Shown here one piece after another: positions 47,453 through 64,000 of a stretch of DNA of 64,000 nucleotides (within the stretch, counting starts at the first letter, position 1; each line of letters starts with the position of its first letter). Both the position numbers and the translations under genes were made by a program. Source of the DNA: Escherichia coli. GTDB lineage: Bacteria > Pseudomonadota > Gammaproteobacteria > Enterobacterales > Enterobacteriaceae. The stretch lies in the NCBI RefSeq assembly GCF_044324785.1, contig NZ_CP172127.1; one strand, written 5' to 3'. Under the pieces are notes generated by a model that was not told the DNA's origin, did no database searches, and was given only the letters and a program-made list of their open reading frames with translations.

Positions 47453-48736
47453 TCAGGCTGCCTGGCTAATCCGCGCCAGCTGCTCGAAATAATCCGGAAA
47501 TGTTTTGGCCGTGCATTTGGGATCAAGAATCGTCACTGGTGTATCTGACAACGCCACCAGCGAGAAACACATCGCTATCCGGTGATCATTGTATGTCGCG
47601 ATCTCGGCAAAGTTCAGCTTTTCCGGTGGAGTGATACGAATGTAATCGTGCCCCTCTTCTACTTCCGCACCAACTTTACGCAGTTCTGTTGCCATCGCAA
47701 ACAGGCGATCGGTTTCTTTAACACGCCAGTTATAGATATTGCGCAGCGTGGTGGTGCCTTTTGCAAATAACGCCGCCGTGGCAATGGTCATCGCCGCATC
47801 GGGAATATGGTTCATATCCATATCAATAGCGTTCAGTTCACCACGCGTGCAGGAAATATAATCATCACCCCAGCAAATGGTCGCGCCCATTTTTTCCAGC
47901 ACATCAGCAAAGCGAATATCACCCTGCATACTGTTGCGTCCAATGCCGGTCACTTTTACAGTGCCACCTTTGATTGCTGCTGCTGCCAGGAAGTAAGAAG
48001 CCGAAGATGCATCGCCTTCGACCAAATAAGTACCCGGAGACTGATAAGACTGCCCGCCTTTTACGACAAATTGTTGATAGTGCTGATTTTCAATTTCAAC
48101 ACCAAACGTCTTCATCAGATTGAGTGTGATGTTGATATAAGGTTTAGAAACCAGATCGCCTTTAATACGAATCACCGTATCTTCCGGTGCAAGAGGCGCA
48201 GTCATTAACAGTGCGGTGAGGAACTGGCTGGAAACGGAGCCATCAACGTCAACGTTGCCGCCAGTAAAGCCGCCCTGTAAACGCAATGGCGGATAATTTT
48301 CTTGTTCCAGGTAAGTGATCTTCGCCCCGCCCAGGCGCAGCGCATCCACCAGATGACCAATCGGGCGCTCTTTCATACGCGGCTCACCAGTCAGCACAAT
48401 ATCATTGCTACCCAGACAAAGAGCTGCCGCCAGCGGGCGCATTGCCGTTCCGGCGTTTCCGAGGAACAACTCCAGGGCACCTTCTGCGTGTAATGGACCG
48501 CCGTTACCGATGATTTCGCAACGCGTACGATCGGCTGAAAGCGTATAGCTTACCCCTAACGCTGCTAATGCATTCAGCATATGGCGCACGTCATCGCTAT
48601 CCAGCAGATTGGTTAATACTGTTTTGCCGTGTGCTAATGCCGCCAGCAATAAAGCGCGGTTAGAAACGCTCTTGGAACCGGGCAGATTAATAGTGCCATC
48701 GACACGAGCGATGGGTTGTAACGTCAGGGATTCCAT
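47453..48736 (-). CDS. aroA: 3-phosphoshikimate 1-carboxyvinyltransferase (EPSP synthase)
   Basis: 427 aa beginning [35 protein letters not shown]. Confidence 0.95.
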
Positions 48737-48806: not shown

Positions 48807-49895
48807 TTAACCGTGACGGCGTTCGAACTCAACCATGAAGTCTGTCAGCGCTTTAACGCCTTCCAGCGGCATGGCATTATAAATAGACGCGCGCATTCCG
48901 CCGACCACACGGTGACCTTTCAGTGCATGAAGGCCTGCAGCAAAAGACTCTTCAAGGAACAATTTGTCAAGCGCACTGTCCGCCAACTGGAACGGCACGT
49001 TCATCCGCGAACGGTTAGCTTTCGCCACGTCATTGCGGTAGAAATCGCTGTTATCAATCACCCCATACAGCAGTTCTGCTTTTTGCTGATTGATTTTATC
49101 CATTGCAGCTACACCGCCGTTCGCTTTCAGCCATTTAAAGACCAGACCAGACAGATACCAGGCAAATGTCGGCGGCGTGTTAAACATGGAGTCGTTATCG
49201 TTGAGAATGGAATAATCCAGAATCGACGGACACGCGATATTCGCTTTGCCCAGCAAATCTTCACGAACGATGACGATTGTCAGGCCAGCCGGGCCGATAT
49301 TTTTCTGCGCGCCAGCGTAAATTACACCATAACGGCTGACGTCAATCGGACGGGAAAGAATGGTTGAAGAGAAGTCGGCGGCGACCACCACATCTTTGCC
49401 GAAGTCTGGCGTTTCGTCGATAGCGATACCGTCGATGGTTTCATTCGGGCAGTAATGCATATAAGCAGCATTATCAGAGAGTTGCCATTCACGCATTGGT
49501 TTAACCGCGCGCAGACCATCAACAGTCACTTTGGCGTCAAAGACATTAGGCGTGCAGTATTTTTTCGCTTCTTTAATGGCACTTGCCGCCCAGTAACCGG
49601 CATCAACATAATCTGCAGTGGTTTTATCACCGAGAATATTCAGCGGAACAGCAGCAAACTGACCGCGACCGCCGCCATGGCAGAACAATACTTTGTAGTT
49701 GGAGGGGACATTAAGAAGATCGCGAAAATCCTTCTCGGCTTCCTCTGCAACCTGAATGAACTCTTTGCCACGGTGACTCACTTCCATCACCGACGTACCA
49801 AGACCGTTCCAGTCGCGCAGTTCCTGTTGAGCCTGTTTAAGCACCTCTGCCGGTAGCATTGCCGGACCAGAACTAAAATTGAAGATTTGAGCCAT
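48807..49895 (-). CDS. serC: phosphoserine aminotransferase
   Basis: 362 aa beginning [33 protein letters not shown]. Confidence 0.95.
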
Positions 49896-50093
49896 TTCCC
49901 CTCACCACGTTGCGTTGCTATTAACCCGCGGTCAATCGATTGCGACCACAGGTAATACATTATTCCTGTGGCTATCGGTTTTATCATTCAGTGACACACA
50001 TCGCAATGAGTAAAACCGTTGAGGGCAAAAATGTGGCTTGCATCACACAAAAGAATCTCTCGGATTATTAGCAAAAAGCCGATGTTTTTACTG

Positions 50094-50786
50094 TCAGGTC
50101 ACCCGTTTTGCCCGACTTGCCTTCGTCCATTCTGGATTTGCACAGCGCGGACATAATTGTTTTTCCCCCGCGTTCATATGAATGATTTCACTGCAACGAA
50201 TGCAGGCATAGTCCGCCGACTCGGGTACCACTTTGTAACGCTGAGTACAGTCACTGGGTAAAATAAGTAAGCCCGGTTTCACCTTGTCATCTTCAAAGAA
50301 ATAGACACTGATTTGCCCGTTGGTTTCGAGAATCGCCAGACGTACCTGCCCCAACTGCTCTACACCGCGCAATCGTAGCTCCATAAAGAACTCAAATTCC
50401 GTCATGTTGGAGTTATTGAGTTTTGACCAGGCCAGCTCGCCATCTTCAATAATGACAACCGGCTTACCTTCCAGAAGATCTTCCAGTTTTTCACTGTGCG
50501 CCATCAACCACATTACCAGTCGGTATAACAACGCCAGAGTAATAAAGACGATAAGTACCGGGACCATCGGCACATCATCATAAAACGCCACATCTCCCGC
50601 CGCTGATCCCAGCGTCAGAATGATTAACACTTCAAAAAGCGACATCTGCCGCACACCGCGTCTTCCGGTCATTTTGAGGAACAAAAAAACCAGTACAAAG
50701 GTATACAGACTACGTAGTGCCACTTCGCCAAGGAAATCAAAAGGCACTTTATCAAATGCCATACGGTGGAGATCGAACGCCTTCAT
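50094..50786 (-). CDS. ycaP: DUF421-family inner membrane protein YcaP
   Basis: 230-aa ORF with N-terminal TM segments; divergent to ycaO. Confidence 0.8.
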   Translation of the reverse strand: MKAFDLHRMAFDKVPFDFLGEVALRSLYTFVLVFLFLKMTGRRGVRQMSLFEVLIILTLGSAAGDVAFYDDVPMVPVLIVFITLALLYRLVMWLMAHSEKLEDLLEGKPVVIIEDGELAWSKLNNSNMTEFEFFMELRLRGVEQLGQVRLAILETNGQISVYFFEDDKVKPGLLILPSDCTQRYKVVPESADYACIRCSEIIHMNAGEKQLCPRCANPEWTKASRAKRVT

Positions 50787-50915
50787 TTTTATGCTCTTAT
50801 CGTAGTTTATCCACTAAAAGCATAGTCAACAGTTCATCGGCATGGCGGCGGTGATAGCGCCTTTGAGATAAAACCCGTATTATTGCGCGCTTTCCGTACG
50901 ACTAAAGTGATTTTC

Positions 50916-52676
50916 ATGACGCAAACATTTATCCCCGGCAAAGATGCCGCTCTGGAAGATTCCATCGCTCGCTTCCAGCAAAAACTTTCAGACCTCGGTT
51001 TTCAGATTGAAGAGGCCTCCTGGCTGAATCCCGTGCCTAACGTCTGGTCTGTACATATTCGCGACAAAGAGTGCGCACTGTGTTTTACCAACGGTAAAGG
51101 CGCAACCAAGAAAGCGGCGCTGGCTTCTGCACTCGGTGAATATTTCGAGCGTCTCTCAACCAACTACTTTTTTGCTGATTTCTGGCTGGGCGAAACCATC
51201 GCCAACGGTCCATTTGTGCATTATCCCAACGAAAAATGGTTCCCACTGACCGAAAATGACGATGTGCCAGAAGGGCTGCTCGATGACCGTCTGCGCGCAT
51301 TTTACGATCCGGAGAATGAATTGACCGGCAGTATGCTGATTGACCTGCAATCTGGTAACGAAGATCGTGGTATTTGCGGCCTGCCGTTTACGCGTCAGTC
51401 CGACAATCAGATCGTTTATATTCCGATGAATATCATTGGTAACCTGTACGTTTCTAACGGTATGTCCGCTGGCAATACCCGCAACGAAGCACGCGTTCAG
51501 GGGTTGTCCGAAGTTTTCGAACGCTACGTGAAAAACCGCATTATTGCTGAAAGCATCAGCTTGCCGGAAATCCCGGCAGACGTGCTGGCGCGTTACCCAG
51601 CGGTGGTTGAAGCCATCGAAACGCTGGAAGCAGAAGGTTTCCCAATCTTTGCTTATGATGGTTCGCTTGGCGGCCAGTATCCGGTGATTTGCGTGGTACT
51701 GTTCAATCCTGCTAACGGTACCTGCTTTGCCTCTTTCGGTGCGCATCCTGATTTTGGCGTAGCACTGGAACGTACCGTGACCGAGCTGCTGCAAGGTCGT
51801 GGCCTGAAAGATTTGGATGTGTTTACTCCGCCAACCTTCGATGATGAAGAAGTTGCTGAACATACCAACCTCGAAACGCACTTTATCGATTCCAGCGGTT
51901 TAATCTCCTGGGACCTGTTCAAGCAGGATGCCGATTATCCGTTTGTGGACTGGAATTTCTCCGGCACTACGGAAGAAGAGTTTGCTACGCTGATGGCTAT
52001 CTTCAACAAAGAAGATAAAGAAGTTTATATTGCCGATTACGAGCATCTGGGCGTTTATGCTTGCCGTATTATTGTGCCTGGCATGTCCGATATTTATCCG
52101 GCTGAAGATCTGTGGCTGGCGAATAACAGTATGGGCAGCCATTTACGTGAAACGATTCTTTCGTTACCAGGCAGCGAGTGGGAAAAAGAAGATTACCTGA
52201 ACCTTATCGAGCAACTGGATGAAGAAGGTTTTGATGACTTTACTCGCGTGCGTGAGCTGTTGGGTCTGGCGACCGGGTCGGATAACGGTTGGTACACCCT
52301 GCGTATCGGAGAATTAAAAGCCATGCTGGCGCTGGCTGGTGGCGATCTGGAACAGGCTCTGGTCTGGACCGAATGGACGATGGAGTTTAACTCATCAGTA
52401 TTTAGTCCGGAACGCGCCAACTATTATCGCTGCCTGCAAACGTTGTTATTACTGGCGCAGGAAGAAGATCGCCAGCCGCTGCAATATCTGAATGCGTTTG
52501 TTCGCATGTACGGCGCAGATGCCGTGGAAGCCGCCAGTGCGGCAATGAGCGGCGAAGCGGCGTTTTATGGCTTGCAACCAGTAGATAGCGATCTGCACGC
52601 GTTTGCTGCACATCAGTCGTTGTTGAAGGCCTACGAAAAGCTGCAGCGCGCCAAAGCAGCATTCTGGGCAAAATAA
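50916..52676 (+). CDS. ycaO: YcaO-domain protein (ribosomal protein S12 methylthiolation accessory factor)
   Basis: 586 aa from the ATG at 50916 (MTQTFIPGKDAALEDS); YcaO superfamily namesake; ORF-track start over-extended. Confidence 0.9.
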   Translation: MTQTFIPGKDAALEDSIARFQQKLSDLGFQIEEASWLNPVPNVWSVHIRDKECALCFTNGKGATKKAALASALGEYFERLSTNYFFADFWLGETIANGPFVHYPNEKWFPLTENDDVPEGLLDDRLRAFYDPENELTGSMLIDLQSGNEDRGICGLPFTRQSDNQIVYIPMNIIGNLYVSNGMSAGNTRNEARVQGLSEVFERYVKNRIIAESISLPEIPADVLARYPAVVEAIETLEAEGFPIFAYDGSLGGQYPVICVVLFNPANGTCFASFGAHPDFGVALERTVTELLQGRGLKDLDVFTPPTFDDEEVAEHTNLETHFIDSSGLISWDLFKQDADYPFVDWNFSGTTEEEFATLMAIFNKEDKEVYIADYEHLGVYACRIIVPGMSDIYPAEDLWLANNSMGSHLRETILSLPGSEWEKEDYLNLIEQLDEEGFDDFTRVRELLGLATGSDNGWYTLRIGELKAMLALAGGDLEQALVWTEWTMEFNSSVFSPERANYYRCLQTLLLLAQEEDRQPLQYLNAFVRMYGADAVEAASAAMSGEAAFYGLQPVDSDLHAFAAHQSLLKAYEKLQRAKAAFWAK

Positions 52677-53081
52677 AATCAAATAGCCTACGCAATGTAG
52701 GCTTAATGATTCGTCTGAGTTATATTACGGGGCGTTTTTTTAATGCCCCGCTTTACATATATTTGCATTAATAAAATAATTGTAATTATAAAGTTAAATA
52801 TCGGTAATTTGTATTTAATAAATACGATCGATATTGTTACTTTATTCGCCTGGTGCTCCCTTTTAATTAACTGTTTTAGCGGAGGATGCGGAAAAAATTC
52901 AACTCATTTGTTAATTTTTAAAATTTATTTTTATTTGGATAATCAAATATTTACTCCGTATTTGCATAAAAACCATGCGAGTTACGGGCCTATAAGCCAG
53001 GCGAGATATGATCTATATCAATTTCTCATCTATAATGCTTTGTTAGTATCTCGTCGCCGACTTAATAAAGAGAGAGTTAGT
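52677..53081 (+). promoter_or_regulatory. AT-rich focA-pflB regulatory/leader region
   Basis: About 400 bp of very AT-rich DNA upstream of focA; in E. coli this region carries the multiple FNR/ArcA/IHF-controlled pfl promoters; individual sites not mapped here. Confidence 0.5.
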
Positions 53082-53939
53082 GTGAAAGCTGACAACCCTT
53101 TTGATCTTTTACTTCCTGCAGCAATGGCCAAAGTGGCCGAAGAGGCAGGTGTCTATAAAGCAACGAAACATCCGCTTAAGACTTTCTATCTGGCGATTAC
53201 CGCCGGTGTTTTCATCTCAATCGCATTCGTCTTCTATATCACAGCAACCACTGGCACAGGAACAATGCCCTTCGGCATGGCAAAACTGGTTGGCGGCATT
53301 TGCTTCTCTCTGGGGCTGATTCTTTGTGTTGTCTGCGGAGCCGATCTCTTTACTTCCACAGTGTTGATTGTTGTTGCTAAGGCGAGTGGGCGCATCACCT
53401 GGGGTCAGTTGGCGAAAAACTGGCTAAATGTCTATTTTGGCAACCTGGTCGGCGCACTGCTGTTTGTACTTTTAATGTGGCTTTCCGGCGAGTATATGAC
53501 CGCGAATGGTCAATGGGGACTAAACGTTCTACAAACCGCCGACCACAAAGTGCACCATACTTTTATTGAGGCCGTCTGTCTTGGTATCCTGGCAAACCTG
53601 ATGGTATGTCTGGCAGTATGGATGAGTTATTCTGGCCGCAGCCTGATGGATAAAGCGTTCATTATGGTGCTGCCGGTCGCGATGTTTGTTGCCAGCGGTT
53701 TTGAGCACAGTATCGCAAACATGTTTATGATCCCGATGGGTATTGTAATCCGCGACTTCGCATCTCCGGAATTCTGGACCGCTGTCGGTTCTGCACCGGA
53801 AAATTTTTCTCACCTGACCGTGATGAACTTCATCACTGATAACCTGATTCCGGTTACGATCGGTAATATTATCGGCGGTGGTTTGTTGGTTGGGTTGACA
53901 TACTGGGTCATTTACCTGCGTGAAAACGATCACCATTAA
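53082..53939 (+). CDS. focA: formate channel FocA (GTG start)
   Basis: 285 aa from the GTG at 53082 (VKADNPFDLLLPAAMAKV...); the ORF-track 398-aa ORF is an in-frame upstream extension through the AT-rich leader. Confidence 0.9.
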   Translation: MKADNPFDLLLPAAMAKVAEEAGVYKATKHPLKTFYLAITAGVFISIAFVFYITATTGTGTMPFGMAKLVGGICFSLGLILCVVCGADLFTSTVLIVVAKASGRITWGQLAKNWLNVYFGNLVGALLFVLLMWLSGEYMTANGQWGLNVLQTADHKVHHTFIEAVCLGILANLMVCLAVWMSYSGRSLMDKAFIMVLPVAMFVASGFEHSIANMFMIPMGIVIRDFASPEFWTAVGSAPENFSHLTVMNFITDNLIPVTIGNIIGGGLLVGLTYWVIYLRENDHH

Positions 53940-53993: not shown

Positions 53994-56276
53994 ATGTCCG
54001 AGCTTAATGAAAAGTTAGCCACAGCCTGGGAAGGTTTTACCAAAGGTGACTGGCAGAATGAAGTAAACGTCCGTGACTTCATTCAGAAAAACTACACTCC
54101 GTACGAGGGTGACGAGTCCTTCCTGGCTGGCGCTACTGAAGCGACCACCACCCTGTGGGACAAAGTAATGGAAGGCGTTAAACTGGAAAACCGCACTCAC
54201 GCGCCAGTTGACTTTGACACCGCTGTTGCTTCCACCATCACCTCTCACGACGCTGGCTACATCAACAAAGCGTTGGAAAAAGTTGTTGGTCTGCAGACTG
54301 AAGCTCCGCTGAAACGTGCTCTTATCCCGTTCGGTGGTATCAAAATGATCGAAGGTTCCTGCAAAGCGTACAACCGCGAACTGGACCCGATGATCAAAAA
54401 AATCTTCACTGAATACCGTAAAACTCACAACCAGGGCGTGTTCGACGTTTACACTCCGGACATCCTGCGTTGCCGTAAATCCGGTGTTCTGACCGGTCTG
54501 CCAGATGCTTATGGCCGTGGTCGTATCATCGGTGACTACCGTCGCGTTGCGCTGTACGGTATCGACTACCTGATGAAAGACAAACTTGCACAGTTCACCT
54601 CTCTGCAGGCTGATCTGGAAAACGGCGTAAACCTGGAACAGACTATCCGTCTGCGCGAAGAAATCGCTGAACAGCACCGCGCTCTGGGTCAGATGAAAGA
54701 AATGGCTGCGAAATACGGCTACGACATCTCTGGTCCGGCTACCAACGCTCAGGAAGCTATCCAGTGGACTTACTTCGGCTACCTGGCTGCTGTTAAGTCT
54801 CAGAACGGTGCTGCAATGTCCTTCGGTCGTACCTCCACCTTCCTGGATGTGTACATCGAACGTGACCTGAAAGCTGGCAAGATCACCGAACAAGAAGCGC
54901 AGGAAATGGTTGACCACCTGGTCATGAAACTGCGTATGGTTCGCTTCCTGCGTACTCCGGAATACGATGAACTGTTCTCTGGCGACCCGATCTGGGCAAC
55001 CGAATCTATCGGTGGTATGGGCCTCGACGGTCGTACCCTGGTTACCAAAAACAGCTTCCGTTTCCTGAACACCCTGTACACCATGGGTCCGTCTCCGGAA
55101 CCGAACATGACCATTCTGTGGTCTGAAAAACTGCCGCTGAACTTCAAGAAATTCGCCGCTAAAGTGTCCATCGACACCTCTTCTCTGCAGTATGAGAACG
55201 ATGACCTGATGCGTCCGGACTTCAACAACGATGACTACGCTATCGCTTGCTGCGTAAGCCCGATGATCGTTGGTAAACAAATGCAGTTCTTCGGTGCGCG
55301 TGCAAACCTGGCGAAAACCATGCTGTACGCAATCAACGGTGGCGTTGACGAAAAACTGAAAATGCAGGTTGGTCCGAAGTCTGAACCGATCAAAGGCGAT
55401 CTCCTGAACTACGATGAAGTGATGGAGCGCATGGATCACTTCATGGACTGGCTGGCTAAACAGTACATCACTGCACTGAACATCATCCACTACATGCACG
55501 ACAAGTACAGCTACGAAGCCTCTCTGATGGCGCTGCACGACCGTGACGTTATCCGCACCATGGCGTGTGGTATCGCTGGTCTGTCCGTTGCTGCTGACTC
55601 CCTGTCTGCAATCAAATATGCGAAAGTTAAACCGATTCGTGACGAAGACGGTCTGGCTATCGACTTCGAAATCGAAGGCGAATACCCGCAGTTTGGTAAC
55701 AACGATCCGCGTGTAGATGACCTGGCTGTTGACCTGGTAGAACGTTTCATGAAGAAAATTCAGAAACTGCACACCTACCGTGACGCAATCCCGACTCAGT
55801 CTGTTCTGACCATCACTTCTAACGTTGTGTATGGTAAGAAAACTGGTAACACCCCAGACGGTCGTCGTGCTGGCGCGCCGTTCGGACCGGGTGCTAACCC
55901 GATGCACGGTCGTGACCAGAAAGGTGCTGTAGCGTCTCTGACTTCCGTTGCTAAACTGCCGTTTGCTTACGCTAAAGATGGTATCTCCTACACCTTCTCT
56001 ATCGTTCCGAACGCACTGGGTAAAGACGACGAAGTTCGTAAGACCAACCTGGCAGGTCTGATGGATGGTTACTTCCACCACGAAGCATCCATCGAAGGTG
56101 GTCAGCACCTGAACGTTAACGTGATGAACCGTGAAATGCTGCTCGACGCGATGGAAAACCCGGAAAAATATCCGCAGCTGACCATCCGTGTATCTGGCTA
56201 CGCAGTACGTTTCAACTCGCTGACTAAAGAACAGCAGCAGGACGTTATTACTCGTACCTTCACTCAATCTATGTAA
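53994..56276 (+). CDS. pflB: pyruvate formate-lyase (formate C-acetyltransferase)
   Basis: 760 aa with C-terminal glycyl-radical motif (RVSGYAVRF). Confidence 0.97.
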
Positions 56277-57208: not shown

Positions 57209-57264
57209 AACATCATGTGCAGGCTGAATTCCGACCTGCCACCCCTTCCTTTAGTAGTAAAAAG

Positions 57265-57300
57265 TAAATCAGCGTTGAGAACATGCTCGACGCTGATTTA
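57265..57300. terminator. hairpin between convergent pflA and the bcsC-like gene
   Basis: Inverted repeat TAAATCAGCG ... CGCTGATTTA around a 16-nt loop; an A-run on the plus-strand 5' side gives a T-run on the minus strand, so it most plausibly terminates the bcsC-like transcript. Confidence 0.4.
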
Positions 57301-57342
57301 CTGGATTTAATTTCCGAGTTTTAACCTTCTGATTCTACCTCA

Positions 57343-60300
57343 TTACCAGTCGGCGTAAGGTATCAGCGGCTGCGGCGGTAAATCCATGTCGCCCTGCCAT
57401 CCGGCGGCGGAATACCGCACGTAGAGCAGGAAATGGCTTGGCGCATAATCTTTCGCCTGCTGGATATCAATCGCCGTGCCGACAAACCAGTTGGACGTGA
57501 CGCGACGCTCAAGTAACGCCCGCGCCGTGTAGCCAAAGCCCTGACTGCTGCCGCCGTCGTTGGTCTGACTGGCGGCATCCTCTTTCCAGTCCGTCGGGAT
57601 CAGGTTCATCAGCGGATAACGCGGCATGGTTTTGGTGCGCGAATGCGACCACGAGCCAGACGCACCCAGCTCCCACGACCAGTTTTCCGTCCGCTCCCGC
57701 CACATCACCGGTATGGCAAACGACAGGTATTCCTGCGGGCTGTAGTAACCGCCCTGACCAAGTGAGTAGCCACTCAGGTCTTTGTCGTAATGCCAGATCA
57801 TATTGTTAAGACCAATGGTCACACGGCGATTATTCTGGTTGATGATCTTATAGTAATAGCCCGTCATCCAGCGCACGCGCCAGTTATCTTCGACATTTTT
57901 ACCGGTTAACTGGTCACCGCTAAGCGATGCCCAGACGCCGTTTGCTTCACCTTTATCGTAGCTCAGGCTTAGCCCCACGCCGTCGGCACGCACGCCGCCC
58001 CATTTTTTCCCGGTATTGCTCGGGGAGTCTTTTTGCCCGCCAAAGGCCAGCAAAGAACTGGAGATGGGCCGACGGTGGGCGTTAACGGTGTAACCCAGCG
58101 GCCCGATATCATCGCTGTAACTGATGCCGCCGACCACATCCACCACGTTGAAGCCCATCGGCGTGGTGCCGATATCCCAGCTCCAGACGTCATTTCGCCA
58201 GCCGACCGCCACGCTGGCACCGGAATCCGACTGGCTGCGGTTGCCGCTACAGTCCTGTAATGTACAGGTGCCCCAGTTGTCATCCCATTTGCCATCGGCA
58301 TTAGTGGAGAAACTGCCGACGTTCATATTGACGAAATCACTGCGAAAGAACATCCGCCCGTCAGAGTACGGCGCATCCACCTGCAACATGGTGGTGTGCG
58401 CTTTCAGATCGGAGTAACCACCGGTGCCGCTCGAACCCCAGTAATCGTGCTCGAGGGTGACGTTAAGATCCTGCTGGCGATAGAGGTCCGCTGCATCGCT
58501 GCGCACGCCGCGTTTCAGCCAGTCATCTTTCTCGTCGTTACGGGTCAGCCGGGTAAAGGTGTCGTTATCCTGCGGACGCGTCGTGGTCACACCGGATGCG
58601 ACCATCGCGTCTTTGTAGGTTTCCAGCGCCTGCGTTGGATCGCCCGCCTGCGCTTCAAACTTCGCACCGTCGCGCAGCACCATCGCGCTTTCCATCGACG
58701 GTGGCTGAGATTTTGCCTGCGGGATCAACTTATTAAACGTCTGCTGCGCCGCTGCGGTATCGCCAAGCTGCGCCTGCGCCAGCGCCACGCGCCGCTGAGT
58801 GTTCAGAGAGGCGTTATCAGTGGCGGGCAGTTTCGCCAGCTGGCTACGTGCCGCCGCTTTGTCACCGGCAGCAATATCCACTTCCGTCAGACCAAGAATG
58901 GCATCGGCGTTAGTTGGCTCCCGCGTCAGGACATTCTGATATGCAGCGCGAGCGGCGGTGTAATCACGTCGTTGTTGCGCCCAGTCAGCCAGCGTGAGGT
59001 CAATACGCGAGGAAGGCGGTTGCTGGCGCAGCATCGCTTCCGCTTCTGCCTCTTTGCCGCTTTCTCGCAGGCGATTAGCGGTTTCCAACACCTGATCGCT
59101 TTGCAGTCGATTAACCAGCTCCTGAATATTGCTGCTCCACTGCGCGCGCGGCAGGCTGTTGATATGCGCCAGCGCCGCTCTGTCCTGGTCATGACCAGAG
59201 AGATACAGCCCGTAAGCGTAAACCTGCTCCGGGTCGTTCGGCTTCTGCTGCGCCAGATTGCGCATTAACGTATCGGCCTGGCTGCGTTGTCCGGCCTGCC
59301 AGAGATCCTGTGAAAGTCGGTAAGTAATCCATACACTGCCGGGGTCCAGCGCCAGTCGCTGGCGCTGAAGTGCTGCTGCCTGCGCCCATTTGCCCTGTTT
59401 TTCCAGCGCTTCGGCCTGCTGTGACAAACGGTCATTTTGCAGGCTGCGTTCGATATCATCAATGCTACGCCGCTGACTGGCAGAGAGCGAGGCGATAAAC
59501 GCTTCAGCCTTTTCTGGCGATTGCTGGCGGTATATATTCGCCAGCCCGCGCACGGCGTTAGTGTTGCCGCTGTCCATACGCAAGGTCTGCTGATAATAAC
59601 GTTCGGCGGCGGGATAATCTTTTCGCGCCATCGCCACATCGCCCAGCCCCAGCACTGCATAGCTGTCGGTGTTATCGACATTACGCGCCTGCTGGAACAG
59701 GCGTTCTGCCCGGTCAGGATTATTGGCTTTCAGCGCAGCATCGCCCTGCTGGATCGCCAGCCAGTAGCGGTTTACTTTCAGGAGACTGTTCCATTTGTCG
59801 TTGTTGCTGCTGTGCGGATCCAGGGCGAGGGCTTTTTCCAGATTCGCCACCGCATTGGCGCGATCGCCTTTCTGAGAATACGCCTGGCCCAGCGCTCCAA
59901 ATATGGCACCAGAGTCAGGATTATCAATATTAAGTATTTTCAACTGACGAATCGCTTCGTTGCGACGGGAGGCAATTTGCGTCATTGCCCCCCAGTATTC
60001 CAGCGCCATTTCGATATCTGGCGGTGCACCGTTAAATAGCTTGTCGTAACTGTCGATAGCCTCTTTATGTCGCCCGGAGATAGCTTGTAAGCGTGCCATT
60101 TGCAGTGCCTGACGCCCCTCAGGCGAAGAAAGTCGCATGGCCGTGCGCGATGCTTTATATATTTTTGAATCAGGAGCGAGCAGGGAAAGTCTGGCAAGTT
60201 GTTTTTGCGCGCCTTCAATATCTCCCTTACGCAGCAGATAGCGAAAACGCGCCGCAACGACATCTGGATTATCAGGTTCCGCCAATTCAAGACGATAAAG

Positions 60301-60450
60301 CGACTGTTCGACCAGATCTTCACGATGAATGTCTTCGCCTAACCGAATCTGCGCCATTAACAGCTTGTGTGCAGTTGGTGTGGCTTTCGCCATCGACATT
60401 ACCGCCAAACCAAGGGATATTGTGAGTAAATTTAGGGTGAATTTGTACAT
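57343..60450 (-). CDS. bcsC: BcsC-like outer membrane polysaccharide export protein (TPR repeats plus C-terminal beta-barrel), 1035 aa
   Basis: Signal peptide; long TPR-rich N-terminal region (repeated A/L/Q/R-rich about 34-aa units); aromatic-rich C-terminal beta-barrel ending PLIPYADW; directly downstream of a BcsB-like gene. Call based on architecture and recalled similarity, not a database search. Confidence 0.75.
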   Translation of the reverse strand: MYKFTLNLLTISLGLAVMSMAKATPTAHKLLMAQIRLGEDIHREDLVEQSLYRLELAEPDNPDVVAARFRYLLRKGDIEGAQKQLARLSLLAPDSKIYKASRTAMRLSSPEGRQALQMARLQAISGRHKEAIDSYDKLFNGAPPDIEMALEYWGAMTQIASRRNEAIRQLKILNIDNPDSGAIFGALGQAYSQKGDRANAVANLEKALALDPHSSNNDKWNSLLKVNRYWLAIQQGDAALKANNPDRAERLFQQARNVDNTDSYAVLGLGDVAMARKDYPAAERYYQQTLRMDSGNTNAVRGLANIYRQQSPEKAEAFIASLSASQRRSIDDIERSLQNDRLSQQAEALEKQGKWAQAAALQRQRLALDPGSVWITYRLSQDLWQAGQRSQADTLMRNLAQQKPNDPEQVYAYGLYLSGHDQDRAALAHINSLPRAQWSSNIQELVNRLQSDQVLETANRLRESGKEAEAEAMLRQQPPSSRIDLTLADWAQQRRDYTAARAAYQNVLTREPTNADAILGLTEVDIAAGDKAAARSQLAKLPATDNASLNTQRRVALAQAQLGDTAAAQQTFNKLIPQAKSQPPSMESAMVLRDGAKFEAQAGDPTQALETYKDAMVASGVTTTRPQDNDTFTRLTRNDEKDDWLKRGVRSDAADLYRQQDLNVTLEHDYWGSSGTGGYSDLKAHTTMLQVDAPYSDGRMFFRSDFVNMNVGSFSTNADGKWDDNWGTCTLQDCSGNRSQSDSGASVAVGWRNDVWSWDIGTTPMGFNVVDVVGGISYSDDIGPLGYTVNAHRRPISSSLLAFGGQKDSPSNTGKKWGGVRADGVGLSLSYDKGEANGVWASLSGDQLTGKNVEDNWRVRWMTGYYYKIINQNNRRVTIGLNNMIWHYDKDLSGYSLGQGGYYSPQEYLSFAIPVMWRERTENWSWELGASGSWSHSRTKTMPRYPLMNLIPTDWKEDAASQTNDGGSSQGFGYTARALLERRVTSNWFVGTAIDIQQAKDYAPSHFLLYVRYSAAGWQGDMDLPPQPLIPYADW

Positions 60451-60562
60451 GCCTGCCTCAATCAGGTGTTAACTCACTTTTTATTAAAAACAGAACGGGC
60501 GCAGCTCCCTGCCTGTATAAAGTCAGGACAGAATGGAGCCGCAAAATAGAAATGATGATGAA

Positions 60563-61166
60563 TTACTGTTGATGAGGGTTCAGACGACGGCGACTAATGT
60601 TACGTAACAGACTCCATACTACCCACGCCAATAGCACCACACTGAGAGTTGCCAGCACTGCCAGTAGAATGGGATGTCTGGCTAACACATATTGCACTCG
60701 TTCAATCCAGGGGAGATGCCCAACGTAATAAGTATCTCCAACTCGTAAACTATTGATGCCAGATTCACGAATAACCGCGACTGAACCAAAAATATTGCCG
60801 CGTTTTGTACTATTAATTAACGCATTGTTGAGTAGCGTATCTCCGCGTGATCCCTCGGACATTAAAGCAATTACGCTGCGTTGGGTATGATATGGAGACT
60901 GAAAACCAACTATCGCCGCCATTGGCAATGGAGAATTTATAGTTGTTTGTATTTCAGGTTTTTGATCGTCGTTATCTGTCATAATTTTGGCGTAATCAGA
61001 GTGTCGTATTGGGCTTTTTACCCAACTTGTTGTTGCCTCAATGAGCAGATTAATTTGCTGATTGTCTGCAAATTCTTGCGGAAGTCTTCCTATTAACAGG
61101 ATATCTGAATCCTTGCCCTGGACAGAACCTATATCATCAGTAATTGTCAGATTAATTGCCGGAGAT
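60563..61166 (-). pseudogene. bcsB: 3' portion of BcsB-like gene (cellulose synthase periplasmic subunit) separated from its 5' portion by IS2
   Basis: Reading frame is open from the IS2 boundary (61166) through the ORF-track ORF 60563..60982 and ends in a C-terminal TM anchor (HPILLAVLATLSVVLLAWVVWSLL); frame is continuous with the 5' part once IS2 plus one TSD copy are removed. Confidence 0.7.
61162..61166. repeat. IS2 target-site duplication GAGAT (copy 1)
   Basis: GAGAT immediately flanks both IS2 termini. Confidence 0.9.
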
Positions 61167-61177
61167 TGGATTTGCCC

Positions 61178-62083
61178 CTATATTTCCAGACACCTGTTAT
61201 CACTTAACCCATTACTGGCCTGCTGCCGCAGATATTCCCGTGGCGAGCGATAACCCAGTGCACTATGCGGATGCCATTCGTTATAATGCTCGAACGCCTC
61301 TGCAAGGTTCTTTGCTGCCGTTAACCCGTCTGGTTTAGGCATGATACTGATGTAGTCACGCTTTATCGTTTTCACGAAGCTCTCTGCTATGCCGTTACTC
61401 TCCGGACTCCGCACCGCCGTGTTCTTCGGTTCAAGCCCCAACATCCGGGCAAACTGCCGTGTTTCATTAGCCCGGTAGCATGAACCATTATCCGTCAGCC
61501 ACTCTACTGGAGACGCCGGAAGCTCGTTGCCGAAGCGGCGTTCCACCGCTCCCAGCATTACGTCCTGTACTGTTTCACTGTCGAAGCCGCCCGTAGTGAC
61601 TGCCCAGTGCAGTGCCTCACGGTCACAGCAGTCCAGCGCGAACGTGACTCGCAGTTTTTCTCCGTTATCACAGCGGAACTCGAACCCGTCAGAGCACCAT
61701 CGTTGATTGCTTTCTTTCACGGCCACTTTGCCAGTATGTGCCCGTTTCGATGGCGGTACAGCGGTTTTTCGCTCAAGCAACAGCGCATTCTGGCGCATGA
61801 TCCGGTAAACACGTTTGGCATTGATCGCAGGCATACCATCAAGTTCGGCCTGTCTGCGAAGCAGCGCCCATACCCGACGATAACCATACGTGGGCAGCTC
61901 TCCGATAACATGGTGTATACGGAGAAGCACATCCGTATCATCTGAGTGACGGCTGCGGCGACCATCTTTCCAGTCATCGGTTCGTCTGAGAATTACGTGC
62001 AACTGCGCACGCGACACCCGGAGACAACGGCTGACTAAGCTTACTCCCCATCCCCGGGCAATAAGGGCGCGTGCGCTATCCAC
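61178..62083 (-). CDS. insD: IS2 transposase OrfB (InsD), DDE integrase domain
   Basis: 301-aa ORF beginning [29 protein letters not shown], with rve-type catalytic region; overlaps insC in the -1 frame as expected for IS3-family frameshifting. Confidence 0.9.
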
Positions 62084-62406
62084 TTTTTTGCACGCCCGTA
62101 TTCAACGGCTTCTTTAAGGAGTTCATTTTCCATCGTTTTTTTGCCGAGCAGGCGCTGGAGTTCTTTAATCTGCTTCATGGCAGCAGCAAGTTCAGAGGCA
62201 GGAACGACCTGCTCTCCTGCGGCCACAGCAGTAAGACTTCCCTCCTGGTATTGCTTGCGCCAGAGAAATAACTGGCTGGCTGCCACACCGTGTTGCCGGG
62301 CAACAAGGGAGACCGTCATTCCCGGTTCAAAACTCTGCTGAACAATAGCGATCTTTTCCTGTGTAGTACGCCGTCTGCGTTTCTCCGGTCCTAAGACATC
62401 AATCAT
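62041..62406 (-). CDS. insC: IS2 OrfA (InsC), helix-turn-helix regulator
   Basis: 121 aa from the ATG at 62406 ([41 protein letters not shown]...); ORF-track start over-extended. Confidence 0.9.
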
Positions 62407-62497
62407 CTGCTCTCCAATGACTAGTCTAAAAACTAGTATTAAGACTATCACTTATTTAAGTGATATTGGTTGTCTGGAGATTCAGGGGGCCAGTCTA

Positions 62498-62502
62498 GAG
62501 AT
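62498..62502. repeat. IS2 target-site duplication GAGAT (copy 2)
   Basis: GAGAT immediately flanks both IS2 termini. Confidence 0.9.
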
Positions 62503-64000
62503 CCAGTTTGAGCACCAATCAGTCCAAGGGTATTTAATAATGTTTCAACTTGCGTTGTGCCAGGATTTTCAGGCATAACCACAACCGTTTCTGATAGATC
62601 GGCCATGCGGCTAAATGGAAAGCCTGAGCTGGCAAAAGCGCGTAAATCTGGCATTGCGATAAAGTGATGGTACTTTGAAAAATCGATAGTGGAATCATCT
62701 GCAATAACCGCATGATTTTTTAGCGACCGGGAAATAATACAGCTATCGGCATCAGAGCGCGGCATTGTATTAACGTACTCAAAATTAAATCGCAATTGAT
62801 TAAGCGCCCCTAACGTCAGCGCAGGAATGTTAATTTCATTATTACCATCCAACAATTCTTGCAATAACGGTAAACGTAACAATAACCTATCAGTAGCAGA
62901 TTGCGGACTCAGCCGGAAAGATTCAAGGTACTGGTTATTAAGGCTGACATCCATGCGTGAACCACCTATCGTTGGCGTGGTATAACGATAGTTAATCTTC
63001 ATCTCACCCCCACGATTACGCAATAGAAAGAGATCAGGTGGCAAATTAAATGAAACATTAATTGCCGCAGACTCCAGGGCACTTGCCTGTAACTGCCCTT
63101 CATAATTTTTAAGCTCTGCGAAAGTTACAGGACGATCAGTGCGTATCCAGTTTGGCGCATCATAAGGTTTACGCGGCAGTAACGGCTTCACGTCATTTAC
63201 GACCACGCTATCGCCGCGAAATAATATATTTCCCTGTGCAAGGCCTTTTGCCGCCTGTAATAAATCTTTATCATCGCGGCCCAAAAGTACCAGCAATTTG
63301 ACAAAGGGATTTTGTGGATGACTGATCATTTTAATAACAGGCGCATTCACCAACGGATGCTCGCGCAGAAAGTCTGGGCGTCTATTGTTCGTGGCAAAGA
63401 CTACTGCATTACTTTCCGGTAACTGGTTATAGAAAACCGGAAATCGGTGACCACGCCAGCCAGATTGCGAACCAAACCACGAAGCGACAATAGCTGATAC
63501 CTGCTGCAAACCAGTCCCAGGAGTACCGGCAAAAACCATCGGCAATGTATTAGGGCGGTTATCTCGCGGATCAAAGAACGGTACAGGAAGATATGAAAGA
63601 TCATTTTTCAAATTGAGTCTCTGAACTACCAGTTCAAGTTCACTGGTACGTCCAATATCAAGCCACAAATTGCCGCTGGTCGGGTTTTCGCAGGCGCTCT
63701 GGTAGTGACTAATTAATTCTAGGCGCAAGCGATTAAAATCCGAAAAATACAATGGGTTAAGAGTTATTTCCGCCAGCGTTTTCTTCCCCAGTTGTTCTTT
63801 GGTAATCGGCAATACCTCCATCAACTCGTCATTAAGATAGACCTTAAGCTGTGACTGGACCGGGATCAGCGACGGTGATGGAGTGTATTCAAGTTTTAGT
63901 TTCGCTTCTGACACTATTTCATCGCTACGCATACCAAACTCAATTTGCCCCTGTGGGTTAACTCCATTCAGGACTATGTTTCCTGGCGCTGGTGCGATTT
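62498..64000 (-). pseudogene. bcsB: 5' portion of BcsB-like gene interrupted by IS2 (runs off the window end)
   Basis: Open minus-strand frame from the window edge to the IS2 boundary; ORF-track protein 62448..63932 (494 aa) is BcsB-like, with its last 16 codons read from IS2 sequence before a stop. Confidence 0.7.

Follow-up and report, generated by a model that had tools for sequence, protein, structure and literature searches.

The ycaO gene divergent from ycaP in Escherichia coli: a stand-alone YcaO enzyme, probably the uL16 Met82 thioamidase

The ycaO gene of the window (the whole stretch of 64,000 nucleotides of Escherichia coli DNA analysed here) very probably, at about 0.94, codes for the stand-alone thioamidase acting on Met82 of ribosomal protein uL16; as this substrate is encoded in trans, no precursor gene is needed. 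The preliminary description had taken the gene for a housekeeping, non-RiPP YcaO; this is supported, and a function, uL16 Met82 thioamidation (PMC13063428), can now be assigned. Both the function and the precursor-free context are already known, and the locus is the ordinary core-genome ycaO of E. coli with a facultative divergent neighbour, ycaP. Our analysis addressed gene identity, domains, acidity, conservation of the checked residues, the lack of a conserved small ORF on either side, and synteny; the substrate, chemistry and binding mode of YcaO are taken from the literature, and rplP, the gene for uL16, lies outside the window.

Identity and start of the ycaO gene

The divergent arrangement of ycaO and ycaP, described earlier from the letters of the sequence, was borne out with exact coordinates. 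The two genes and the domains of YcaO are:

50094-50786, minus strand: ycaP, a 230-aa DUF421/YetF-family membrane protein (Pfam PF04239 and PF20730; RefSeq annotation)
50916-52676, plus strand: ycaO, 586 aa, an ATP-dependent backbone amide-activating enzyme (Pfam, NCBIfam and PDB 4Q84 match)
51090-52088, plus strand: YcaO catalytic (ATP/Mg2+-binding) domain, residues 59-391 (Pfam PF02624, 252 bits)
52134-52658, plus strand: YcaO_C domain, residues 407-581 (Pfam PF18381, 220 bits)

In the ORF list the plus-strand ycaO frame ends with a stop codon at 52676 and has TTG 50883 as its mechanical start. This start was rejected in favour of ATG 50916, because the solved YcaO protein opens with MTQTF, the alignment to the NCBIfam model begins at residue 4, and ATGACNCAAAC is kept in all ycaO orthologues, with indels of lengths not divisible by three 5′ of it. 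The catalytic domain covers the full PF02624 profile (1-325; cut-off 25.7 bits). Membership of the YcaO superfamily follows from this match and from TIGR00702 (572 bits, cut-off 75.65), and the NCBIfam equivalog NF040716 scores 915 bits against a cut-off of 700. The YcaO_C domain is probably the counterpart of the TPR-like dimerisation domain, ∼150 residues long, that has been described for E. coli YcaO (EcYcaO; PMC13063428).

The protein is identical at 585 of 586 positions to the crystallised E. coli YcaO (PDB 4Q84/4Q85/4Q86). The sole difference from the 4Q84 protein, T166I, is shared with strain N3, which has an identical YcaO by tblastn comparison; the position is T in 76/81 orthologues and I in 3/81. 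Among 5426 complete E. coli genomes, 5425 carry the 3.2-kb stretch around the locus, with 95-99% identity or higher.

Conserved residues and acidity of YcaO

Residues S71, E75, E78, S184, N187, E199, R203 and R286, reportedly ATP/Mg2+-binding (Dunbar et al. 2014), are invariant in the 81 orthologues. The ATP/Mg2+-binding residues are in place here, the protein being identical to that of the ATP-bound crystal structure except for T166I. Also invariant in these orthologues is E202, whose replacement in the E202A variant of EcYcaO leads to incomplete thioamidation (PMC13063428), and the same holds for 10 of the 12 interface residues that this study probed. YcaO of the window has a pI of 4.38, with 92 Asp+Glu versus 42 Lys+Arg, and the pI of the 81 orthologues ranges from 4.34 to 4.61. 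An unusually low pI (about 4.4), complementary to the basic uL16, is a hallmark of the uL16-modifying YcaO clade (PMC13063428). The protein falls within this clade by sequence (the identity to EcYcaO and the NF040716 equivalog match), by its low pI, and by a context free of RiPP genes, judged from the neighbours and from an ORF comparison across 81 loci. No sequence evidence against the uL16-thioamidase reading was found at the locus.

Thioamidation of uL16

EcYcaO thioamidates Met82 of folded uL16 at the expense of ATP (Rice et al. 2026, PMC13063428; this source also for what follows). The Met82 thioamide is lost in a ΔycaO strain, which has no growth defect on its own, and co-expression with YcaO makes the modification of uL16 complete. 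In vitro, the reaction requires full-length uL16, ATP, MgCl2 and Na2S, the sulfide being non-physiological. EcYcaO binds uL16 with a Kd of 9.8 nM; it does not bind 11-24-residue peptides, nor does it modify them. Orthologues from Klebsiella and Pseudomonas have the same activity, and that study, too, reports no small ORF near E. coli ycaO. The biochemistry and genetics were done with the K-12/BL21 protein, and by analogy the T166I allele would be expected to thioamidate uL16 Met82 as well.

In the proposed mechanism, the homodimeric and very acidic YcaO would bind the folded, very basic uL16, supplied by rplP elsewhere in the genome, and the uL16 loop carrying Arg81-Met82-Gly83 would enter the active site. 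A sulfide equivalent would then attack the backbone carbonyl of Met82, which YcaO would phosphorylate with ATP and Mg2+, and elimination of phosphate would leave a thioamide adjoining the peptidyl-transferase centre. The uL16 thioamide shows epistasis with the RoxA hydroxylation of Arg81. Since uL16 would be recognised by its tertiary structure, as a trans-encoded housekeeping protein, no leader-peptide gene, RRE partner, E1-like protein, dehydrogenase or TfuA should be needed.

Short ORFs in the gaps flanking ycaO

The segments 50787-50915 and 52677-53081 are true intergenic gaps. The preliminary description had advised searching both for Cys/Ser/Thr-rich ORFs with ribosome-binding sites, and had noted that a conserved short precursor-like ORF next to ycaO would change its reading. 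We enumerated all ORFs of ≥10 aa with ATG, GTG or TTG starts in the two gaps. Seven were obtained, with a Cys+Ser+Thr fraction of 0.05-0.25 and at most one Cys each, and none of the seven is Cys/Ser/Thr-rich or preceded by a Shine-Dalgarno sequence. For comparison across species, 1085 short ORFs from 81 Enterobacterales loci and the window were clustered, and neither gap yielded a precursor-like ORF conserved among these loci. Every large cluster maps to conserved regulatory DNA or is antisense to the block upstream of ycaO. Cys-rich ORFs of other species are mostly species-specific (clusters of 1-3 loci), and the rest occur singly, as atypical members of large clusters that are antisense or in promoter regions.

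A single mini-ORF is widely kept, and it lies upstream of focA:

53008-53046, plus strand: 12-codon ORF MIYINFSSIMLC (ORF cluster in 66 loci)
53082-53939, plus strand: focA, formate channel, GTG start, first gene of focA-pflB (NCBIfam NF008069, 634 bits)

The 12-codon ORF overlaps an FNR-box-like sequence, ATGATctatATCAA, at 53008-53021 (FNR pattern match), as well as conserved TATAAT/TAGTAT promoter elements upstream of focA. Its ATG is kept in 72 and its TAG stop in 68 of 73 aligned sequences. The columns conserved in this alignment belong to the FNR half-sites and the promoter-like hexamers, identity by codon position is 0.89/0.94/0.82, without clear three-base periodicity, and no Shine-Dalgarno sequence precedes the ORF. 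It was rejected as a precursor peptide because it coincides with those half-sites and hexamers and lacks clear periodicity; we judge the region, from its pattern of conservation, to be regulatory DNA. A second candidate was an in-frame extension of focA by 113 codons, from the mechanical start ATG 52743. The frame upstream of focA is open for 121 codons and includes "CSLLINCFSGGCGK", but the full-length opening is limited to the window and strain N3, with 2-86 codons open at the other loci, and the extension was therefore attributed to chance.

Neighbourhood and transcription signals of ycaO

The gene order aroA-serC-ycaP / ycaO-focA-pflB-pflA is the conserved enterobacterial arrangement. The statement that ycaO has no adjacent precursor, dehydrogenase or E1-like partner holds: the neighbours are serC, ycaP, focA, pflB and pflA, and no E1-like, dehydrogenase or TfuA gene lies next to ycaO (TfuA is absent from E. 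coli). YcaP carries the YetF C-terminal domain DUF421 (61.8 bits, Pfam cut-off 23.6), a weaker YetF_N match below the cut-off (23.3 versus 26.5 bits) and a conserved C-terminal CxxC-N13-CxxC motif. Of 81 places with a scorable upstream neighbour, 47 have ycaP, and at the other 34 serC directly abuts ycaO; we rejected ycaP as a functional partner of ycaO because of these 34 places. On the other side, focA is the next gene, on the same strand, at 73 of 82 places examined, and at least five loci lack it downstream of ycaO although no contig end interrupts them. In the window focA begins ∼400 bp downstream of ycaO, past a set of hairpins.

Two elements flank the gene:

50853-50910, plus strand: conserved block upstream of ycaO, GATAGCGCC-N16-AAAACCCGTATTATTGCGCGCTTTCCGTACGA...AAAGTGA (alignments of 82 and 13 sequences)
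52685-52750, plus strand: hairpins after the ycaO stop codon, at 52685-52703, 52706-52723 and 52728-52750 (fold energy)

The upstream block contains a -10-like TATTAT (50878-50883) with a GC-rich discriminator behind it, and the conservation of the block suggests that it comprises the ycaO promoter and a short leader whose ribosome-binding site is weak; the consensus promoter scan gave no call there. The order of a -10-like TATYAT and a GC-rich discriminator is also that of stringently controlled ribosomal promoters. We also rejected a riboswitch or other structured RNA leader ahead of ycaO, as Rfam gave no match at an E-value of 1 or better and RNAalifold gave three pairs without covariation. 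The hairpins 3′ of ycaO have a fold energy of -33.9 kcal/mol (z = -4.4 versus shuffles); that at 52728-52750 has a GC-rich stem with a weak T tract behind it, and a terminator-like site lies on the minus strand at 52703-52685. We infer that they form the ycaO terminator region, which separates ycaO from focA-pflB, and that ycaO forms a transcription unit by itself, from the -10-like element to these hairpins. Independent transcription of ycaO and focA-pfl has been reported (Sawers 2005, as cited in PMC7550191).

Relationship to other YcaO enzymes

The closest known system is E. coli K-12 YcaO (UniProt P75838; PDB 4Q84/4Q85/4Q86), the uL16 Met82 thioamidase, which is the same gene: length, domains, pI and the neighbours serC-ycaP / ycaO-focA-pflB are equal, and T166I is the difference. 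The OsmC-YcaO fusions (TIGR03549) are closely similar in their YcaO and C-terminal parts (680.7 bits, below the 900-bit cut-off), but the N-terminal OsmC domain is absent here, because the match starts at profile position 148. The methanogen YcaO (TIGR03266), which acts with TfuA and thioamidates Gly465 of McrA, likewise carries out an ATP-dependent O-to-S replacement in a protein backbone, on a non-RiPP substrate encoded elsewhere. Its sequence is distant, however (38.7 bits for the YcaO of the window, cut-off 365), and with no tfuA at the locus the protein falls outside the TfuA-associated thioamide-forming class (TIGR03266 and thioamitide-type); moreover, the methanogen enzyme takes short McrA peptides, whereas EcYcaO requires folded full-length uL16 (PMC13063428). 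The TOMM/LAP cyclodehydratases (SagD/BalhD/McbD, TIGR03604) share the YcaO ATP-binding fold and amide activation via an O-phosphorylated hemiorthoamide. With 43.7 bits against a cut-off of 219.25, YcaO of the window lies outside this family, and its locus lacks an E1-like/ocin-ThiF partner, an RRE, an FMN dehydrogenase and a precursor gene. The nucleophile also differs, being a Cys/Ser/Thr side chain in the TOMM/LAP enzymes and a sulfide equivalent in EcYcaO.

Alternative functions

The database name suggests that YcaO is an accessory factor that aids RimO in the methylthiolation of Asp88 of uS12. S12-accessory names stand on NCBIfam NF040716, which the sequence matches, on RefSeq and on the PDB entries, and Strader et al. 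2011, as summarised in PMC13063428, found YcaO co-purified with tagged uS12 and a fall in uS12 modification from 99% to 84% in a ΔycaO strain. Yet in vitro RimO suffices to modify a uS12 peptide, a ΔrimO strain is wholly without uS12 modification, and the ΔycaO effect is small and may be indirect. The AlphaFold3 interface scores are not confident (0.31 for YcaO-uS12 and 0.16 for YcaO-RimO), and the accessory role is questioned in the same study (PMC13063428). In addition, rimO was not seen among the larger identified ORFs of the window, the annotation of which is partial. We consider an accessory role unlikely. Almost no credit goes to a cryptic RiPP maturase forming azolines or thioamides, whose short precursor was overlooked in a flanking gap. 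Small ORFs are easily missed, and the 12-codon ORF ends in Cys and is kept in nearly all 73 aligned Enterobacterales sequences, but it is too short for a leader plus core; the composition of the gap ORFs, the scatter of Cys-rich ORFs elsewhere, the low scores with the SagD and McrA-type models and the inertness of short peptides towards EcYcaO all speak against such a precursor.

The linkage of ycaO to focA-pflB could instead reflect a shared role in anaerobic formate and pyruvate metabolism, in place of or besides ribosome modification, and Watson et al. describe the same synteny across Gammaproteobacteria. The strong hairpins behind the ycaO stop codon, the independent transcription, the focA gap with its own FNR-box region and the loci that lack focA argue against it, and the uL16 thioamide is found in aerobically grown cells; we hold this role to be very improbable. 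Preferring uL16 thioamidation, we also see little chance that something at the locus beyond the known enzyme matters. Three possibilities are covered jointly by this estimate: the near-invariant serC-ycaO-focA-pflB order and the element upstream of ycaO might tie uL16 thioamidation to growth rate or anaerobic state; the same arrangement and element might point to the sulfur-delivery route in vivo; and the 12-codon ORF inside the FNR box might be translated from transcripts of upstream promoters.

Implications

For a genome scan the locus counts as a true negative: this is a textbook core gene, and its reading as a non-RiPP YcaO was correct. The label "S12 methylthiotransferase accessory factor" in the databases is out of date and lags behind the 2026 demonstration of uL16 thioamidation. 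The missing precursor gene is explained and not suspicious, since the substrate is a folded ribosomal protein encoded in trans.

The ycaO locus and the start of the gene

By megablast, 5425 of the 5426 complete E. coli genomes contain the 49900-53100 stretch, every match being annotated as ycaP, ycaO and focA, and the top match was to strain N3, the closest relative (99.2%). An ORF listing, together with a ycaO start at ATG 50916, returned exactly the coordinates of ycaP and ycaO and the two intergenic gaps (50787-50915 and 52677-53081) named in the preliminary description. The genes of the locus are:

47453-48736, minus strand, aroA
48807-49895, minus strand, serC
50094-50786, minus strand, ycaP (230 aa)
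50916-52676, plus strand, ycaO (586 aa; long ORF with its stop at 52676)
53082-53939, plus strand, focA (GTG start)
53994-56276, plus strand, pflB, with pflA next

The ycaO product matched the Pfam families YcaO (252 bits) and YcaO_C (220 bits) and the NCBIfam equivalog NF040716 (915 bits; cut-off 700). It is identical at 585 of 586 positions to the E. coli YcaO of the solved structures 4Q84, 4Q85 and 4Q86, and T166I (codon 166, 51411-51413) is its sole difference from the crystallised K-12 protein. Among 81 orthologues this position is Thr in 76 and Ile in 3, and tblastn comparison revealed no difference between the YcaO of strain N3 and that of the window. The mechanical start of the ORF, TTG 50883, was rejected. 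The start was placed at ATG 50916 because the crystallised protein begins with MTQTF, ATGACNCAAAC in the start region is unchanged in all orthologues, and indels of lengths not divisible by three occur 5′ of it.

The neighbour genes were placed by tblastn. Besides the window and strain N3, the comparison took in 80 fetched loci with a YcaO orthologue at 81-99% identity (Escherichia, Citrobacter, Salmonella, Klebsiella, Enterobacter, Cedecea, Pantoea, Erwinia, Brenneria, Serratia and others), giving 82 places in all, or 81 loci when the window is not counted. serC lies 5′ of ycaO at every scorable place; ycaP is present between them in 47 places and missing in 34, its absence affecting the Erwiniaceae and some Citrobacter, Cedecea and Enterobacter loci. 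focA-pflB lies 3′ of ycaO in 73 of the 82 places. Of the remaining nine, four run into a contig end; in the other five (L047, L049, L062, L064 and L078) no match to focA was found within ~3 kb downstream. In the locus of strain N3 (L001), an IS4-family transposase (135-1481) adjoins aroA.

YcaP matched the YetF/DUF421 C-terminal domain in Pfam and, more weakly and below the cut-off, YetF_N. Beyond the region matching DUF421/YetF, its C-terminal ~40 residues carry a zinc-ribbon-like CxxC-N13-CxxC motif, conserved in all orthologues inspected.

A second cellulose-synthase-like cluster

Directly 3′ of pflA, the minus strand carries a second cellulose-synthase-like cluster (57343-63932):

57343-60450, minus strand, BcsC-like gene (1035 aa)
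61178-62083, IS3-type transposase (rve domain), between the BcsC-like and BcsB-like genes
62448-63932, minus strand, BcsB-like gene (match to profile positions 32-502 of 606)

At least 80% of 57250-64000 was covered in only 6 of the 5426 complete E. coli genomes. Strain N3 came nearest: it matched at 99.9% in two pieces that together span only 80% of the query, a pattern suggesting that the IS is absent from it.

Search for a precursor ORF in the gaps

The two gaps of the window contain seven ORFs of at least 10 aa. None is Cys/Ser/Thr-rich (fractions 0.05-0.25, with at most one Cys), and a Shine-Dalgarno sequence was absent from all seven. When 1085 short gap ORFs were clustered across the loci, no conserved precursor-like family was found among them, and Cys-rich gap ORFs were mostly limited to 1-3 species.

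The most widely kept gap ORF has 12 codons:

53008-53046, plus strand, MIYINFSSIMLC

Of 73 aligned Enterobacterales sequences, 72 keep its ATG; no ribosome-binding site was found for the ORF, and its identity by codon position (0.89/0.94/0.82) gave no clear coding pattern. The invariant columns here are ATGAT....ATCAA, which is an FNR box with one mismatch (53008-53021), the promoter-like hexamers TATAAT and TAGTAT, and a GCTTTGTTAGTATC block downstream. The ORF coincides with this FNR-box-like ATGATctatATCAA and with the hexamers, upstream of focA. From these alignments we judge the conservation to be probably regulatory. The conserved region is presumably the FNR-dependent promoter region of focA-pflB, which Sawers and co-workers are said to have characterised long ago.

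The focA frame is itself open for 121 codons 5′ of the GTG, including CSLLINCFSGGCGK, in a region of ~35% G+C; the mechanical ORF in this frame begins at ATG 52743 (52743-53081, plus strand). This extension was rejected as a chance open frame, since the full length occurs only in the window and strain N3, the other loci having 2-86 codons.

Sequences flanking ycaO

Alignments revealed a block strongly kept from Escherichia to Erwinia and Serratia:

50853-50910, plus strand, GATAGCGCC-N16-AAAACCCGTATYATTGCGCGCTTTCCGTACGA...AAAGTGA, upstream of ycaO

Neither consensus RNA structure, covariation nor an Rfam match was found for this block. It contains a -10-like TATTAT (50878-50883; TATYAT across relatives) followed by a GC-rich discriminator, and we infer that it is the ycaO promoter plus a short leader; a simple consensus promoter scan made no call here, so that the promoter role stays inferential. 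An invariant ATAG motif ~18 bp further upstream would make a poor -35 element and may be a site for a regulator.

Three RNA hairpins follow the ycaO stop (-33.9 kcal/mol, z = -4.4), the last of which (52728-52750) has a GC-rich stem and then a weak T tract. These fit the independent transcription of ycaO and focA-pfl reported by Sawers 2005, as cited in PMC7550191.

Function of YcaO

The window YcaO scored far below the cut-off of each model for other YcaO families: 43.7 bits for the TOMM SagD-type (cut-off 219), 38.7 for the McrA-thioamidation YcaO (365) and 680.7 for the OsmC-YcaO fusion (900), whose OsmC part it lacks. Together with the lack of a conserved precursor ORF, this supports the earlier reading of ycaO as a stand-alone housekeeping, non-RiPP gene.

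A backbone thioamide at Met82-Gly83 of ribosomal protein uL16 was seen in a 2.0-Å E. coli ribosome structure, and YcaO was put forward as its enzyme (Watson et al. 2020, PMC7550191). This was established by Rice et al. 2026 (PMC13063428). Of the 4403 proteins in their proteome-wide AlphaFold3 screen, only uL16 came out as a partner in a catalytically competent pose. ΔycaO ribosomes lacked the thioamide, co-expression with YcaO gave fully modified uL16, and ATP-binding-residue variants, e.g., E202A, modified it incompletely. Purified YcaO modified full-length uL16 only with ATP, MgCl2 and Na2S (Kd = 9.8 nM), 11-24-residue peptides were neither bound nor modified, and the Klebsiella and Pseudomonas orthologues had the same activity (PMC13063428). 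By the general YcaO mechanism, a sulfide equivalent attacks the backbone carbonyl as nucleophile, ATP phosphorylates the resulting oxyanion, and phosphate elimination follows. A low enzyme pI (4.4) is the clade hallmark (PMC13063428); the computed pI is 4.38 for the window YcaO and 4.34-4.61 for all 81 orthologues, in which E202 is invariant, as are 10 of the 12 interface residues that the study tested.

The name under which databases list YcaO, "S12 methylthiotransferase accessory factor", would assign it to uS12 instead. The basis of this name, as related in PMC13063428, is co-purification and a fall in the modified share of uS12 from 99% to 84%. RimO alone sufficed for uS12 modification in vitro, and neither the YcaO-uS12 nor the YcaO-RimO interface was predicted with confidence (PMC13063428). 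A role in uS12 modification would be at most minor or indirect, and second to uL16 thioamidation. Nothing about ycaO at this locus is unexpected. As to the physiological role of the thioamide, a ΔycaO strain grows normally, and deletion of ycaO suppresses the slow growth of ΔroxA cells in minimal medium.
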